Numbered from the stretch's first letter, positions 14,616 through 20,234 are shown. The stretch is DNA of 64,000 nt from Lysobacter sp. (GCA_044464395.1 JBIQLI010000001.1:94509-158508); one strand, 5' to 3'. Numbers and translations: made by a program. Notes: generated by a model from the sequence alone, not told the origin.

Positions 14616-14825
14616 AGCGCGCAACGGCACCGCACCCGGCCAGTGACCGGTATTCACCAAATCGTGTCAATGCTGCAGCCGCCGGCGGGCGCTGAATAGA
14701 CTTGCGCCCCTGCCGGGGCTGCGCGCTCCCGGGACCCGACATGCGATTTCGCGCCGGCATCGGAGCTGTCGCGGCGCATGTGTGGCGTCGGTATCGGCGC
14801 TGCAAACAAGAGCATGGAGAATGAC

Positions 14826-14993
14826 ATGAAGTCGAAGCTCATCGCCCTTGCTGCCCTGGGCTTGCTCGCCACGAGCAGTGTCGTGGCCGCGCGCATGGTC
14901 TGCGTCTCGGAGAACTGCACGTTCTACCCGGACGGCCATTACAGCTGCGGCAAGACCCATTGCACCTACTATCCGTCCACGGAGGCCAATTGA
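14826..14993 (+). CDS. Small secreted 4-Cys peptide, family 1, copy 1 (precursor 55 aa)
   Basis: GGAGA lies 5 nt upstream of the ATG. Sequence: MKSKLIALAALGLLATSSVVAA/RMVCVSENCTFYPDGHYSCGKTHCTYYPSTEAN. It has a Sec-type signal peptide and is paralogous to the next two ORFs. Confidence 0.6.
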   Translation: MKSKLIALAALGLLATSSVVAARMVCVSENCTFYPDGHYSCGKTHCTYYPSTEAN

Positions 14994-15160
14994 TGAAGAA
15001 GGCAATCCTGTCCCTGTTCGCCGCCAGCATCCTCGCCTCCGGCGCCGCGATGGCGATCAAGTGGGAGTGCACCGACTGCACCCTGTACCCCGACGGCCGC
15101 ATCGTCTGCAAGCACTGCGTCGGCACCGACGGTGCGACGACCTCCCGGGCGCCGAACTGA
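14993..15160 (+). CDS. Small secreted 4-Cys peptide, family 1, copy 2 (precursor 55 aa)
   Basis: GGAGG lies 7 nt upstream. The ATG overlaps the previous stop (TGATG). Sequence: MKKAILSLFAASILASGAAMA/IKWECTDCTLYPDGRIVCKHCVGTDGATTSRAPN. Confidence 0.65.
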   Translation: MKKAILSLFAASILASGAAMAIKWECTDCTLYPDGRIVCKHCVGTDGATTSRAPN

Positions 15161-15170
15161 GGAACACACG

Positions 15171-15332
15171 ATGAAGCACAAGATCGCAATCTGCATGATC
15201 GCGCTGGGCATGTTCGCCACCGGGTCCGCAATGGCCATGAAGTGGAACTGCAAGAACTGCACGCTCAATCCGGATGGCACCATCCACTGCGAAACCTGCA
15301 CGGGCAAGACCGGCGAGGTCGAGCGCAACTGA
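15171..15332 (+). CDS. Small secreted 4-Cys peptide, family 1, copy 3 (precursor 53 aa)
   Basis: GAGGA lies 7 nt upstream. Sequence: MKHKIAICMIALGMFATGSAMA/MKWNCKNCTLNPDGTIHCETCTGKTGEVERN. Confidence 0.65.
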   Translation: MKHKIAICMIALGMFATGSAMAMKWNCKNCTLNPDGTIHCETCTGKTGEVERN

Positions 15333-17151: not shown

Positions 17152-17162
17152 ACGTCCATTCC

Positions 17163-17858
17163 ATGCCTGACCACGACAGCCCCCAACCCCTCCTCAGCCT
17201 CCGCGGCATCACCCGTCGCTACAGCGCGGGCTCGGGCCGGGTCACCGCGCTCGACGACGTCAGCCTCGCGGTGCGCGACGGTGAATTCGTGTCGATCCTC
17301 GGACCATCGGGTTGCGGAAAATCGACGTTGCTCTCCGTGCTCGGCCTGCTGGAGCGGCCGGACGCCGGCAGCTACCGGATCCGGGACATCGATACCGGCG
17401 CGCTCGGCTTCGACCAGCGCAGTTCGCTGCGCAACCGCTACATCGGCCTGGTGTTCCAGGCCTTCAACCTGGTGGCCAACCTGACCGTTGCGGAAAACGT
17501 CGCGCTGCCGACGCGCTATGGCAACGTGGACCGCGACGAGCGCGATGCCCGCGTGCATGCGCTGCTCGAGCGGGTCAACCTCCTGGACAGGGCCCGGCAC
17601 TACCCCCACGAGCTTTCGGGCGGCCAGCAGCAACGCGCGGCGATCGCGCGGGCCATGGTGATGGGCCCGTCGCTGATCCTGGCCGACGAGCCGACCGGCA
17701 ACCTCGATTCCCGGCATGCCACGGACGTGATGGGCCTGGTGCGCGAGTTCAACGAGGAAGGCGCCACCGTCGTGCTGGTGACCCACGACCTGGGGCTGGC
17801 GCAGATGGCGGGGAGGCGGCTGCACATGCTCGACGGCCGTTTCGTCGAGGCGTCCTGA
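17163..17858 (+). CDS. ABC transporter ATP-binding protein (MacB/LolD type)
   Basis: Walker A GPSGCGKST, signature LSGGQQQR, Walker [13 protein letters not shown]. Confidence 0.92.
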   Translation: MPDHDSPQPLLSLRGITRRYSAGSGRVTALDDVSLAVRDGEFVSILGPSGCGKSTLLSVLGLLERPDAGSYRIRDIDTGALGFDQRSSLRNRYIGLVFQAFNLVANLTVAENVALPTRYGNVDRDERDARVHALLERVNLLDRARHYPHELSGGQQQRAAIARAMVMGPSLILADEPTGNLDSRHATDVMGLVREFNEEGATVVLVTHDLGLAQMAGRRLHMLDGRFVEAS

Positions 17859-17867
17859 GGCACCGCC

Positions 17868-20234
17868 ATGCCGCACGCCCTGCACGACGCGATCCGCTTC
17901 TGGAAGGCGAGTCCCGGGCGCGGGCTGTTGTTGCTGGCCAGCTGCGCGCTGATCGTGGCGCTGGCGGCGGTCAACACCGTGGTGCTGCGCTCCTCGCTCT
18001 GGTTCACGCCGCCGGGCGTGGATCCGGGGATGCACTTCCTCACCTTGGGCCAGCACACCCCGGAAGGGCGCTTCGAACCGGTCGCGCTGCAAGACCTGGA
18101 CAGGTTGCGGTCGCTGGTCGCGCCCGGTGGATTTGCCGCATACGGCCGTTCCGATGGCGAGGTGCGCCTGGGCGACGCCTCCTGGCCGGCGCAACCGGTG
18201 GCCCTGGTCAGCGACCGATTTTTCGAAGTGCTCGGCGTGGATGCCATGATCGGCGAGACGCCCGGCGCCGACGCGCATGGAGCGATGCTCAGCCACGCAT
18301 TCTGGTCCGGTCCGCTTCACTCGGATCCTTCCATTGTCGGCAAGAGCATCAACATCGCCGGCGCGGACATTCGCGTGGTCGGCATCGCGCCGCCCGCGTT
18401 CAAGGGGCTGGGAGACCTGGCGCCGGTCGCCTGGATTCCGGACAAGTACACGCCGGCGTTCTTCGACCTGCTGTTGCCGCTGCCGCAGGAGATCGTGGAT
18501 TCGGCGAAGGCCGAGTTCGCGACCCTGGCGCCGTTCTTCTTCGGCATCGTCGACGCCGGCAAGGTGGATCCGGACGATCCGCGGCTGACCCGCTGGAAGG
18601 TCCGCGACACCCGCGAGATCTCGCTGTCCACGCCGACGGGGCCATTGAAGCTTGGCTTCGATGCCACCGGCCATGCCAGCGCGGTGTATCCGCGCATCGA
18701 CATCACGCCGCAGCGCACCGCCACCGTCGCCCGATACCTCGCGATCCTCGGCCTGCTCAACGCCGCGCTCGCGTTCCTTGCGCTGCTGAACCTTGCTTCG
18801 TTCTGGTCGGCGCGCACCAGCGAGCGTGCGCAGGAACTGCAGTGCATGGTGGCGGTGGGCGCGCGGCGCCGCGACCTGGCCGGCATGTTCCTGTCCGAGG
18901 CCCTTCCGTTCCTGGCCCTGGTGTTGCTGCTGTCGGTGCCGCTTGCCTACGGCCAATTCCACCTGGTGCGCCAGCTGCAACCGATGCAGGACTACCTGCA
19001 AGGCAGGGGCGTCGCCTTGTCCGCGCGCGATTTCCTTCCGGGACTGGGCCTCATTGTCGCGGTCGGCGTGGTGGCCGTGGCCTGGCCTTGGCGCTACCTG
19101 CGCGAAAGCGTCCTGCGCAGCCGTTCGATCGGTGCGACCGCCGCCACCGAGCGGGGCCGCAAGCTGGCGCATGCCCTGCAATGGGCACTGTCCGCCTTCG
19201 TGGCGGGCGCCGTGGGGCTGAGCCTGCTCGTCGCGCTGCGCCTGAACGCGGCGCCCTGGGGCGGCAGCGCCGATCCGGTGCTGGTGACGGCGCCGGAACA
19301 CGGCCTCGAAGCCGCATCGGATCTTGCGCGCAGGCTCGGGCTGGACGAGGACGCCATGGCCGTCATCCGGACCCCGCCGCTCACCCGTTTGCAGGTCCGC
19401 GCCGAGCTCCATGCGAACGAAGCCGGCGATAGCGTCCGCCATACGATCTACTTCAACGCGGCTTCGCCGCAGGCTTTCGACCTGCTCGGCGTCCCGCTCC
19501 TGGCCGGGCGCACCTATGCGCCGCACAGCGAGAACGAGGTCGTGTTGAGCGCCAGCGCCGCGGCCTTGTTCGGCGGTACCGCGGTGGTCGTCGGCAGACA
19601 CCTCACCCGCGCGGATCCGTTCGACGCCAGCCAGGACACCAGCGTGCTGGTCACCGGGGTGGTCGGGGACATCCACTACGACAGCGTGCGCACGCCTGCC
19701 GAAGCGGTGGCGTACGTGCCGCCGGAATCGTCCCTGTCCGGGATGACCGTGCTGCTGCCGCACCGGTTCCTCGCTTCCGGCGCGCTGGACCACGCGCACA
19801 GCATGTCGGACAAGCGCGCGGACCAGGTGCGCACCGAACTGCTGCTGGCCGGGTTCACGTTCTGCTATGCGGTGCTCGCGCTGGGCCTGATGGGACTGGG
19901 CCTGTTGTCCCTCGCCAGGACCCGACTGCAGCAACACGGCCGCGAACTGGGCCTGCGCGCGGCGCTGGGGGCGAGCCTGGGCCAGGCCGCGCGCGAGTTC
20001 ATGCGCGCGCCCGCGCTCGTTGCGGTCGCGGCGGCCTTGCCGGTCGTCCTGCTGTTCGTGCTGGCCCTGGCTGCCAATGCCGTGCCGATGCCATTGGCGC
20101 AGCCGCTCGATGCGGCCTGGGTCGGCCTCGGGATGGCCGCGGTGCTGCTGCTGTTCGGGGTGACGCTGTTCGGGTTCGCGCGGCGCAAGCTGGCACGGTT
20201 CAACCTGTCCGAACTGTTGCGCGCGGAGCGCTGA
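17868..20234 (+). CDS. Fused double FtsX/MacB-type ABC permease (788 aa)
   Basis: Two successive units, each with a TM segment, a large periplasmic domain and a 3-TM FtsX domain. The gap to the ATPase gene is 9 nt. Confidence 0.85.
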   Translation: MPHALHDAIRFWKASPGRGLLLLASCALIVALAAVNTVVLRSSLWFTPPGVDPGMHFLTLGQHTPEGRFEPVALQDLDRLRSLVAPGGFAAYGRSDGEVRLGDASWPAQPVALVSDRFFEVLGVDAMIGETPGADAHGAMLSHAFWSGPLHSDPSIVGKSINIAGADIRVVGIAPPAFKGLGDLAPVAWIPDKYTPAFFDLLLPLPQEIVDSAKAEFATLAPFFFGIVDAGKVDPDDPRLTRWKVRDTREISLSTPTGPLKLGFDATGHASAVYPRIDITPQRTATVARYLAILGLLNAALAFLALLNLASFWSARTSERAQELQCMVAVGARRRDLAGMFLSEALPFLALVLLLSVPLAYGQFHLVRQLQPMQDYLQGRGVALSARDFLPGLGLIVAVGVVAVAWPWRYLRESVLRSRSIGATAATERGRKLAHALQWALSAFVAGAVGLSLLVALRLNAAPWGGSADPVLVTAPEHGLEAASDLARRLGLDEDAMAVIRTPPLTRLQVRAELHANEAGDSVRHTIYFNAASPQAFDLLGVPLLAGRTYAPHSENEVVLSASAAALFGGTAVVVGRHLTRADPFDASQDTSVLVTGVVGDIHYDSVRTPAEAVAYVPPESSLSGMTVLLPHRFLASGALDHAHSMSDKRADQVRTELLLAGFTFCYAVLALGLMGLGLLSLARTRLQQHGRELGLRAALGASLGQAAREFMRAPALVAVAAALPVVLLFVLALAANAVPMPLAQPLDAAWVGLGMAAVLLLFGVTLFGFARRKLARFNLSELLRAER

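Follow-up and report, generated by a model that had tools for sequence, protein, structure and literature searches.

The window analysed here, a 64,000-nt stretch of Lysobacter sp. DNA (GCA_044464395.1 JBIQLI010000001.1:94509-158508; one strand, all coordinates counted from its first letter), carries an operon in which three small genes for four-cysteine peptides with predicted Sec signal peptides (A, B1 and B2) are followed by genes for a CxxC accessory protein, a HlyD-type adaptor, an ABC ATPase and a duplicated FtsX-type permease (Table 1). The same combination of genes recurs at 11 of 11 independent loci, and the module is real but rare and patchy in its distribution. Pfam, NCBIfam and the literature that could be searched gave no description of the peptide family, of the accessory family or of the constant pairing of the two with a HlyD/ABC/double-FtsX pump. 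The mechanism class, in which Sec-dependent peptides are secreted in two steps via a MacB-type pump, is already known. The route that we favour, with confidence somewhat above even for the whole of it, is that the peptides would be exported by Sec, folded through disulfides by the CxxC protein and expelled by the pump as a bacteriocin-like payload.

The first-pass annotation of the window had proposed three back-to-back small genes with Shine-Dalgarno (SD) sites and Sec-type signal peptides at the head of the operon. The coordinates, the gene order and the TGATG overlap, in which the ATG of B1 shares bases with the TGA stop of A, were all confirmed. The GGAG-type SD motifs that had been noted (GGAG, GGAGG and GAGGA) lie 6-7 nt 5' of the starts of A, B1 and B2. 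All three precursors begin with M-K-x-K in a Lys-rich n-region and possess a hydrophobic core and small residues at positions -3 and -1, an N-terminal architecture that bears out the proposed sites VVA/A, AMA/I and AMA/M. Cleavage was placed with the -3/-1 rule and the aid of orthologues: A is predicted to be cut at VVA/ARM and B1 at AMA/IKW, each yielding a mature peptide of 34 amino acids (aa), and B2 at AMA/MKW, yielding one of 31 aa. The predicted mature peptides have masses of 3.5-3.8 kDa and pI values of 6.0-6.7. The core of A is of type A (C-x4-C-TFYPDG-x3-C-x4-C-TYYP), that of B1 is of type B (W-x-C-x2-C-TLYPDG-x3-C-x2-C), and B2 is a paralogue of B1 with a type-B core. No sigma-70 consensus promoter was found upstream of the peptide genes.

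Relatives of the module were recovered by several routes. A permease search returned three orthologues at 44-50% identity, one of them on contig L005 (52% GC; L numbers are our labels for contigs and loci). The same operon is present there with two uncalled small open reading frames (ORFs), of which one encodes an orthologue of A (...AARMVCIGENCTIYPDGRYTCENLHCRIYPN) and the other a B-type peptide. L088, found by a metagenome scan with the accessory-protein alignment, contains A and B peptides, a hairpin, a CAAC protein, HlyD and an ABC ATPase. An exhaustive HMMER search of the three window peptides against 1.84 billion representative proteins gave 37 matches at E <= 1e-3, about 15 of which are 45-64-aa precursors of like architecture. 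Large proteins with WD40 and RCC1 repeats among the peptide-profile matches were rejected as false positives, and the 125-aa protein P0170 is doubtful as a family member. When the peptides and the CPSC protein of the window were used as queries in word-indexed searches, they matched nothing but themselves. We regard this outcome as an artefact of sensitivity and gene calling, because the HMMER search and the context look-ups recovered the family. Context look-ups of eight peptides supplied the further loci L089, L092, L093, L094, L095/096, L097, L098-100 and L101/102. The 11 loci counted are the window, L005, L088, L089, L092-L095, L097, L098 and L101, and the ten non-window loci are metagenomic.

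Every one of these loci, which range from 45 to 70% GC, encodes 1-4 peptides together with a CxxC protein of about 160 aa (157-218 aa as called), a HlyD protein of 420-445 aa and an ABC ATPase of about 230 aa, and the duplicated permease (FtsX2, 770-810 aa) is present in all eight loci whose contig extends that far. Peptide, CxxC and pump genes, whose co-occurrence the first-pass annotation had proposed to check, thus occur together at 11 of 11 independent loci. The identities of the accessory protein, HlyD, ATPase and permease to their window counterparts drop in parallel from locus to locus, which indicates co-inheritance. The flanking genes differ from locus to locus: the window has glmU and a histidine kinase, L088 a PEBP protein, L098 an XRE-type regulator, L089 an extracytoplasmic function (ECF) sigma factor fragment and L101 an insertion sequence (IS) element. 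The conserved unit is therefore the peptides, the CxxC protein and the pump. Permease orthologues at 25-50% identity are confined to the family loci.

We also measured the linkage with a peptide filter that calls for a small ORF with a basic N-terminus, a hydrophobic core and C-x2-5-C-x7-11-C-x2-5-C. It gave 27 matches in 64 kb of family loci (1-4 per locus). In 1.38 Mb of control loci there were three matches, all unrelated, and the remaining 58 kb of the window had none. A CHKC-x11-CATC motif at window position 12388 (+ frame) lies in a long open frame upstream of glmU, has no signal peptide and no PDG turn, and is not a member of the family. The control loci come from a scan of 185,579 GTDB species representatives, one genome each, with the CxxC-protein and permease alignments, in which the module was absent. 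The permease alignment found there only Acidobacteriota permeases of the ADOP type ('Acidobacterial duplicated orphan permease', whose genes are orphans not known to have an adjacent ATPase). At about 25% identity these are the nearest outgroup of the window permease, and their loci, unlike the module, lack such peptides by the filter. A tblastn search of 72,556 PLSDB plasmids gave no accessory-protein match.

The peptide genes lie mostly 5' of the accessory gene, and some stand between the accessory gene and hlyD (L094, L097) or 3' of the permease gene (L094). L093 has four B-type peptide genes; one of its peptide genes (2118-2264) overlaps the start of the 206-aa accessory gene call within 1900-3123, and another (2820-2954) sits where the caller placed a minus-strand ORF; the automated calls are probably wrong there. 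The locus of the 6-Cys variant (L101 159-1343 and L102) adjoins an IS element with an rve integrase and HTH_Tnp_1, which hints at mobility of the module. A divergently transcribed XRE/CI-type helix-turn-helix (HTH) regulator stands 5' of the peptides in L098 (347-775), L099 and L100, and the ECF sigma fragment of L089 (3-287) does so as well; both are possibly local regulators, not family-wide ones.

The three small ORFs of the window are real, selected genes. One could take them for open frames that exist by chance in the GC-rich DNA upstream of a common efflux operon, as spurious ORFs abound in such DNA and the gene caller missed the small ORFs of L005. The third-position GC content (GC3) of the small ORFs, 0.86-0.95 in this 70%-GC DNA, is like that of glmU and the pump genes (0.87-0.92), however, and each ORF has an SD site. 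The ORFs are kept in 11 loci of widely different base composition with the Cys residues and the turn Gly invariant, and the rate of filter matches in the control loci is about 190-fold lower. Selection is seen in relatives, where type A orthologues (L005, L088, L089, L095) have proportions of nonsynonymous change (pN) of 0.24-0.43 and of synonymous change (pS) of 0.56-0.94, the latter saturated, with pN/pS of 0.27-0.74. In near-identical metagenome strain variants the changes fall only in the signal peptide, in the C-terminal tail and at inter-Cys positions and spare the Cys/PDG core, and the population variants of B2 likewise alter residues outside that core only. Conservation, GC3, pN/pS and the control rate effectively refute the chance-frame explanation, to which we assign a negligible probability.

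Table 1 Features of the peptide-pump operon in the window.
Feature	Coordinates	Strand	Evidence and remarks
Peptide A precursor, 55 aa	14826-14993	+	ORF, SD, GC3 0.86; RefSeq WP_399683088.1, hypothetical protein
Peptide B1 precursor, 55 aa	14993-15160	+	ORF, SD, GC3 0.95; RefSeq WP_399683090.1, hypothetical protein
Peptide B2 precursor, 53 aa	15171-15332	+	ORF, SD, GC3 0.89; RefSeq WP_399683093.1, hypothetical protein
GC-rich stem-loop	15339-15371	+	between peptide genes and downstream genes; no U-tract in window
Accessory protein, 157 aa	15408-15881	+	predicted signal peptide LLARA/EVV; CPSC
HlyD/MFP-type periplasmic adaptor, 419 aa	15892-17151	+	transmembrane segment 31-49; coiled-coil hairpin ~100-240
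ABC ATPase, MacB/LolD/FtsE (type VII) clade, 231 aa	17163-17858	+	ABC_tran 2.2e-33
Duplicated FtsX-type permease, 788 aa	17868-20234	+	two MacB_PCD + FtsX halves

The peptides form a family with two spacing types. Type A follows A-[RK]-M-[VI]-C-x4-C-[TR]-x-Y-P-D-G-x-Y-x-C-x4-C (C-x4-C-x9-C-x4-C), and type B follows [KR]-x-x-C-x2-C-x-[ILVF]-x-x-[DN]-G-x3-C-x2-C (C-x2-C-x9-C-x2-C). Type A is limited to the clade of the window, L005, L088, L089 and L095 and always has type B adjacent; the window itself has one A and two B peptides. The motif C-x(2,4)-C-T-[LF]-x-P-D-G-x3-C-x(2,4)-C, which had been drawn from the three window peptides, holds in its two spacing types, but the four Cys and the turn Gly are all that stays invariant when 17 members are compared. 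Precursors in the family are 45-64 aa and the mature peptides 22-34 aa long, and two 6-Cys members carry an additional outer Cys pair. Neither Pfam nor NCBIfam has a model that covers the peptides, and the first-pass annotation had not recognised the motif as any named family either. The N-termini weakly match the signal peptides of secreted StxB, CopK, SefA and beta-lactamase in family and PDB searches. StxB, CopK, SefA and the NCBIfam family ExtJ (17.5 bits against a cut-off of 52.5) were rejected as families, as the matches run mainly or only over the signal-peptide N-terminus. The precursors do not resemble class II microcins and other double-glycine-leader bacteriocins, whose GG/GA leaders are cut by a C39-peptidase ABC exporter (PCAT), since their N-termini are of Sec type and the FtsX-type ABC system has no peptidase domain; no peptidase-containing ABC exporter was found in the conserved module. 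Nor do they resemble bufferins, which are Cys peptides with a Sec signal and an MNIO enzyme, or other ribosomally synthesised peptides with post-translational modifications (RiPPs): no MNIO/DUF692, radical SAM or LanM-type enzyme occurs in the conserved module, the first-pass annotation having likewise seen no RiPP-type modifying enzyme nearby, and no DUF2282/BUF precursor match was obtained.

An AlphaFold2 (AF2) model of B1, built on the 17-sequence alignment, is a single beta-hairpin with strands 23-31 and 37-46 joined by a Y-P-D-G-R turn (pLDDT 82-93 in the core). In this model C1 faces C4 and C2 faces C3. The mature peptides are thus predicted to be beta-hairpins that pair C1 with C4 and C2 with C3, and the symmetric change of Cys spacing (x2/x2 or x4/x4) together with the outer pair of the 6-Cys members would fit such a cross-strand ladder. 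Foldseek found no match of the peptide model in the PDB below E = 1.

Between the peptide genes and the machinery lies a stem-loop whose core is the perfect 18-nt GC palindrome GGGCCGGCGCGCCGGCCC, which had been noticed earlier and is located at 15346-15363. The local fold has a free energy of -29.4 kcal/mol (60-nt window from 15339) and the entire 75-nt spacer one of -33.2 kcal/mol. A strong stem-loop (-24 to -43 kcal/mol) is found 3' of the last upstream peptide gene in 10 of 10 loci tested, followed by a T-run in some of them; its position and structure are conserved and its sequence is variable. Its probable role is that of a partial terminator, or of a hairpin that stabilises the RNA, with the ratio of peptide to machinery set in this way. 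Many bacteriocin operons make more peptide mRNA than machinery mRNA.

The accessory protein had been described as a CPxC protein. CPSC is indeed its motif in the window and occurs there only, so that the family motif is CxxC in general, with CAAC, CGPC, CPAC, CYPC, CSAC, CPGC, CTAC and CIGC as the other variants. Such CxxC dipeptides span the range typical of thiol-disulfide oxidoreductases. The 11 homologues are 22-46% identical and share invariant H29, P46, G55, C120, C123, Y126, E149, N151 and Y153. No Pfam or NCBIfam family covers them. Against PDB sequences the profile matched thioredoxins only, with strand-CxxC-helix-strand in register with CGPC and weak E values of 0.3-1.4. The segment 'VPKVYVLS..G..IFEG', N-terminal to the CxxC motif, resembles the cis-Pro/beta3-beta4 element of thioredoxin. 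We therefore also searched the PDB and Pfam with a permuted profile, in which the N-terminal half was placed behind the C-terminal half. Its E value was slightly better (0.09), and the 4fyu and hhalign alignments ran through the cis-Pro element; significance was not reached, and the permuted profile was likewise silent in Pfam. An hhalign comparison with four thioredoxin sequences gave P = 0.002, with a score no higher after permutation, and a single-sequence AF2 model (pLDDT 44) was unusable. The accessory protein may be thioredoxin-like and possibly circularly permuted, which is not proven, and its sequence makes it a candidate for a dedicated thiol-disulfide oxidoreductase of the peptides.

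The four genes that had been read as CPSC protein, HlyD adaptor, ABC ATPase and 788-aa double-FtsX permease are as described, with gaps of 10, 11 and 9 nt, within the 9-11 nt given earlier. The HlyD protein matches Pfam HlyD_3 (2.6e-14) and HlyD_D23 (6e-9) and NCBIfam RND_mfp (2.4e-23), its residues 101-244 give weak coiled-coil-type matches to SMC-family models of NCBIfam, and a hydropathy scan predicts a single N-terminal transmembrane segment. The best NCBIfam models for the ATPase are DarD (5.4e-69), MacB (2.1e-65) and LolD (1.1e-61), all under their equivalog cut-offs; with FtsE, which is also among the best, the E values span 1e-60 to 5e-69. The permease has two stretches each of Pfam FtsX (8.6e-18) and MacB_PCD (1.9e-14), and the hydropathy scan predicts 4+4 transmembrane segments and two large periplasmic loops. 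In their sequences, the adaptor, ATPase and permease thus show the features that define a MacB-type (type VII ABC) tripartite pump. The pump belongs to none of the named groups that we compared. For the E. coli MacB equivalog (NF007826, cut-off 966 bits) the ATPase scored 221 bits and the permease 15.5 bits; for the ADOP family (TIGR03434) the permease scored 133.9 bits against a cut-off of 622.3; for DarBCD the scores were 232 bits against 375 (DarD) and 31 bits against 450 (DarC), with no radical-SAM gene nearby; and for the LolCDE equivalogs they were under the cut-offs. At L098 (4041-6445) the permease is split into two ORFs of 91 and 717 aa, by a frameshift, as a pseudogene or through an assembly error.

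Taken together, the comparison of the loci supports the order of events that the first-pass annotation had put forward, from Sec export through handling by the CxxC protein to expulsion by the pump, and each of its predictions that could be checked came out as expected. The route proposed here is as follows. The peptide genes would be transcribed at the head of the operon, and the stem-loop probably lets the peptide message exceed that of the machinery. The 45-64-aa precursors would use Sec to pass the inner membrane and have their signal peptides removed by signal peptidase I, as suggested by their sequences, and the 22-34-aa mature peptides would fold as beta-hairpins around the x-P-D-G turn, as AF2 predicts. 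The CxxC protein, presumably in the periplasm, would make or proof-read the two cross-strand disulfides. HlyD, ATPase and FtsX permease would then capture the folded peptides in the periplasm and expel them via a TolC-like duct, by analogy with the export of heat-stable enterotoxin II (STII) through MacAB-TolC, and the expulsion would simultaneously clear the producer's own envelope of peptide. That the pump exports the peptides, and does not only protect the cell, is suggested by this analogy. The secreted peptides would most likely be bacteriocin-like competition molecules, which is the least certain step. We favour this payload because the module is rare, patchy and associated with an IS element at one locus, multiple divergent paralogues occur per locus, the structural genes come first in an operon with a putative attenuator, and the pump would double as self-protection. 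Bacteriocin clusters typically hold multiple divergent paralogues.

Several points weigh against this route. On structural grounds, C-x2-C spacing would put the two pairs of Cys on opposite sides of a regular hairpin, one of them in a hydrogen-bonded register of the kind in which disulfides are not usually formed. The resemblance of the accessory protein to thioredoxin is weak by the statistics (E >= 0.09, no Pfam match, single-sequence AF2 model with pLDDT 44). There is no separate immunity gene in the module, and the window peptides are near-neutral (pI 6-6.7), unlike cationic antimicrobial hairpins. No outer-membrane factor gene was found in any of the 11 loci or among the window ORFs scanned; the TolC-like duct is assumed to be a housekeeping partner encoded elsewhere. 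In addition, the best PDB matches of the peptide profile are Zn(Cys)4 fingers of the NZF/RanBP2 type (Npl4, E = 0.0034, followed by TAB2/3, RanBP2 and ZRANB1). The Npl4 NZF segment AMWACQHCTFMNQPGTGHCEMCS and the B2 segment AMKWNCKNCTLNPDGTIHCETCTG have W-x-C-x2-C-T-[FL]...C-x2-C in common, and the fingers as a group resemble the window peptides in W-x-C-x2-C-T-[FL]-x...C-x2-C within about 25 residues. They are, however, eukaryotic cytosolic modules that bind ubiquitin or RNA, their spacing is x10 where that of the peptides is x9, the key Asn of the fingers is replaced here by the P-D-G turn, and within the peptide family some members lack the Trp. The Pfam model Zn_ribbon_RanBP (PF00641), with the pattern W-x-C-x2-C-x3-N-x6-C-x2-C, gave weak matches in 2 of 17 members (E >= 0.055) and its threshold was not reached. 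We regard the resemblance as most likely convergent.

These matches nevertheless keep alive a reading in which the cysteines bind metal instead of forming disulfides. The peptides would then be secreted or periplasmic metallopeptides whose Cys4 makes a tetrahedral Zn, Cu or Fe site in the manner of a mini zinc-ribbon, the CxxC(+His) protein would maintain the peptides in reduced form or load the metal, and the pump would export them, apo or holo, as a metallophore or a metal-detoxifying carrier. Such a role would suit the invariant His, Glu and Tyr that accompany the CxxC motif of the accessory protein as well as the two weak Zn_ribbon_RanBP matches, the window has genes for a CopA-type ATPase and a MerR/CueR-type regulator a short way downstream, and PvdRT-OpmQ is a precedent for metallophore export through a MacB-type pump (PMC5985334). 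Yet the copper genes are not conserved beside the other 10 loci, no TonB receptor or uptake gene is linked, and several divergent paralogues per locus are unexpected of a metallophore. Free Cys4 sites are unusual in the periplasm, which is oxidising. The joint shift from x2/x2 to x4/x4 and the outer Cys pair suit a hairpin ladder over two zinc knuckles, the AF2 model is one long hairpin with no knuckles, and the x10 spacing and conserved Asn of the NZF fingers are missing. We consider a metallopeptide unlikely.

Two further rivals concern the fate of the peptides. If the hairpins left by the same route and were sensed by kin as pheromone-like or quorum-sensing-like signals, their small size and near-neutral charge would be in keeping, as would their diversification across loci on a retained scaffold and the regulators beside some loci (the hybrid histidine kinase in the window, the XRE/CI-type HTH protein in L098-L100 and the ECF sigma fragment in L089). 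The loci have no receptor or regulator in common, though, the PAS domain of the window kinase is cytoplasmic and a periplasmic sensor is not obvious in it, and several different peptides per locus with a costly dedicated ABC pump are more typical of toxins. We judge a signalling role improbable. Alternatively, the pump could be mainly protective, with the peptides acting in the producer's own envelope or leaving otherwise and HlyD/ABC/FtsX2 clearing the inner-membrane surface, as for YknWXYZ with SDP or the lactococcin 972 transporter. The lack of a separate immunity gene is in line with this proposal, as is the score of 187 bits of the window ATPase on the model of the lactococcin-972-group transporter (TIGR03608), which is below the cut-off of 254.85, and Gram-positive MacB-family pumps do guard against endogenous peptide toxins (PMC5985334). 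In a diderm cell, however, the long coiled-coil hairpin of a HlyD-type adaptor implies that it docks to a duct in the outer membrane, and removal from the periplasm would therefore amount to secretion. A purely protective pump is thus barely distinguishable from the route that we prefer, and as a separate explanation we find it quite improbable.

The closest precedent for export by the route favoured here is STII. MacB moves no substrate across the inner membrane and takes its substrates from the periplasm; STII reaches the periplasm through Sec, receives two disulfides from DsbA and needs MacAB-TolC for its exit, and PvdRT-OpmQ with pyoverdine and Aat with dispersin work in a like manner (PMC5985334). 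The precedents MacAB-TolC/STII and PvdRT-OpmQ/pyoverdine that the first-pass annotation had invoked are as described in that source. The STII system and the module share a small precursor of Sec type, a four-Cys mature peptide and a MacB-type pump with a HlyD-family adaptor; for STII this pump leads from the periplasm to the outside (PMC5985334), as it would in the module. STII, with 48 aa, is nevertheless unrelated in sequence, and no Pfam match ties it to the window peptides. It relies on housekeeping DsbA and MacAB that are not encoded with the toxin gene, whereas the module has a dedicated CxxC protein in its operon. MacB is a fused ATPase-permease that works as a homodimer, whereas the module has a separate ATPase and an internally duplicated permease.

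Other known systems share parts of this arrangement. The Aat (AatPABCD)/Cex systems also encode a dedicated MacB-type tripartite pump with a Sec-dependent periplasmic protein cargo, dispersin or CexE (PMC5985334; see also PMC7943197). The Aat cargo is a 10-kDa protein N-acylated by AatD, and the locus encodes the TolC-like AatA; unlike the module, it has no CxxC oxidoreductase or Cys-rich mini-peptides. In the pediocin PA-1/PedC and sublancin/BdbA/BdbB systems a disulfide peptide is co-encoded with a CxxC protein and an ABC exporter, with the structural genes first. These systems are Gram-positive and use double-glycine leaders and a peptidase-containing ABC exporter, not Sec and a MacB-type pump, and we know of no sequence relationship between their proteins and those of the module. 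Lactococcin 972, which is Sec-dependent, and YknWXYZ/SDP also combine a secreted peptide toxin with an ABC transporter of the FtsX/MacB family. Both are Gram-positive systems whose transporters serve immunity, and their peptides are unrelated to those of the window. Lactococcin 972 is without cysteines (PMC8538875), and YknWXYZ protects against SDP, a peptide with one disulfide (PMC5985334). As to the permease, YbbAP-TesA resembles the module in its separate ATPase and in a single, duplicated permease polypeptide (YbbP) with two MacB-like periplasmic domains, and a periplasmic partner protein defines its function (PMC12646458). YbbP has 10 transmembrane segments where 4+4 are predicted for the window permease, works with no HlyD adaptor and extracts lipids.

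The surroundings of the operon in the window were inspected as well. Directly 3' of the permease gene is a hybrid PAS histidine kinase/response regulator (20244-21791, -), followed by the CopA-type P-type ATPase (21896-24070, -), with the MerR/CueR-type regulator beyond it (minus-strand block 20244-24609). A functional link of the module to the copper genes and the histidine kinase was rejected as a conserved feature, since the flanks differ at every locus. A metagenome contig that is 99.1% identical to the window (L001, 12028-12225) diverges from it fully at about 23900-24211, the 5' end of the CopA-like gene, and its CopA-like product has a His-rich/YHS-type N-terminus that is absent from the window ORF. 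This divergence is a strain-level replacement or recombination at the metal-binding N-terminus. RefSeq labels the window products 'Xenophilus sp.', a betaproteobacterium, and the cluster of histidine kinases at >=90% identity includes HET7656148.1, a protein of a metagenome-assembled Luteimonas sp. genome; the label of one of the two records, Xenophilus or Luteimonas, is probably wrong. Elsewhere in the window, 2127-4568 (+) encodes an adhesin of the YadA-type trimeric autotransporter kind, which has a beta-roll segment as well as collagen-triple-helix repeats. A resistance-nodulation-division (RND) efflux pair consists of a membrane fusion protein (MFP; 55846-57015, +) and an AcrB-type pump (57022-60147, +), with no TolC-type gene among the ORFs scanned, and is followed by an MgtC/DUF4010 protein (60184-61497, +).

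We tentatively put forward, as a possibility, that the module represents a new Gram-negative class of ribosomal peptides that are secreted, with C-x2-C...C-x2-C hairpins of 22-34 aa, a new and possibly permuted thioredoxin-like maturase and the first dedicated natural peptide cargo of a duplicated MacB-type pump. In its boldest form, the proposal is that the Cys4 module would be redox- or metal-switchable, a disulfide ladder or a Zn/Cu site, as set by the CxxC protein before export. The accessory protein may belong to the thioredoxin superfamily as a new and possibly circularly permuted branch. The small genes are easily missed, as those of L005, which went uncalled, and the self-matches of the word-indexed searches illustrate, and they show how such systems evade annotation. 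MacB-type pumps are widespread and their native cargo is mostly unknown; STII, the main peptide example, is encoded apart from its pump. As cargo, folding factor and pump are always co-encoded here, the module would offer a clean genetic system for the recognition and expulsion of a folded periplasmic peptide by a type VII ABC pump. Its compact and evolvable four-Cys scaffold, of which about 28 natural variants were recovered, could supply narrow-spectrum antimicrobials or signals from Gram-negative bacteria.

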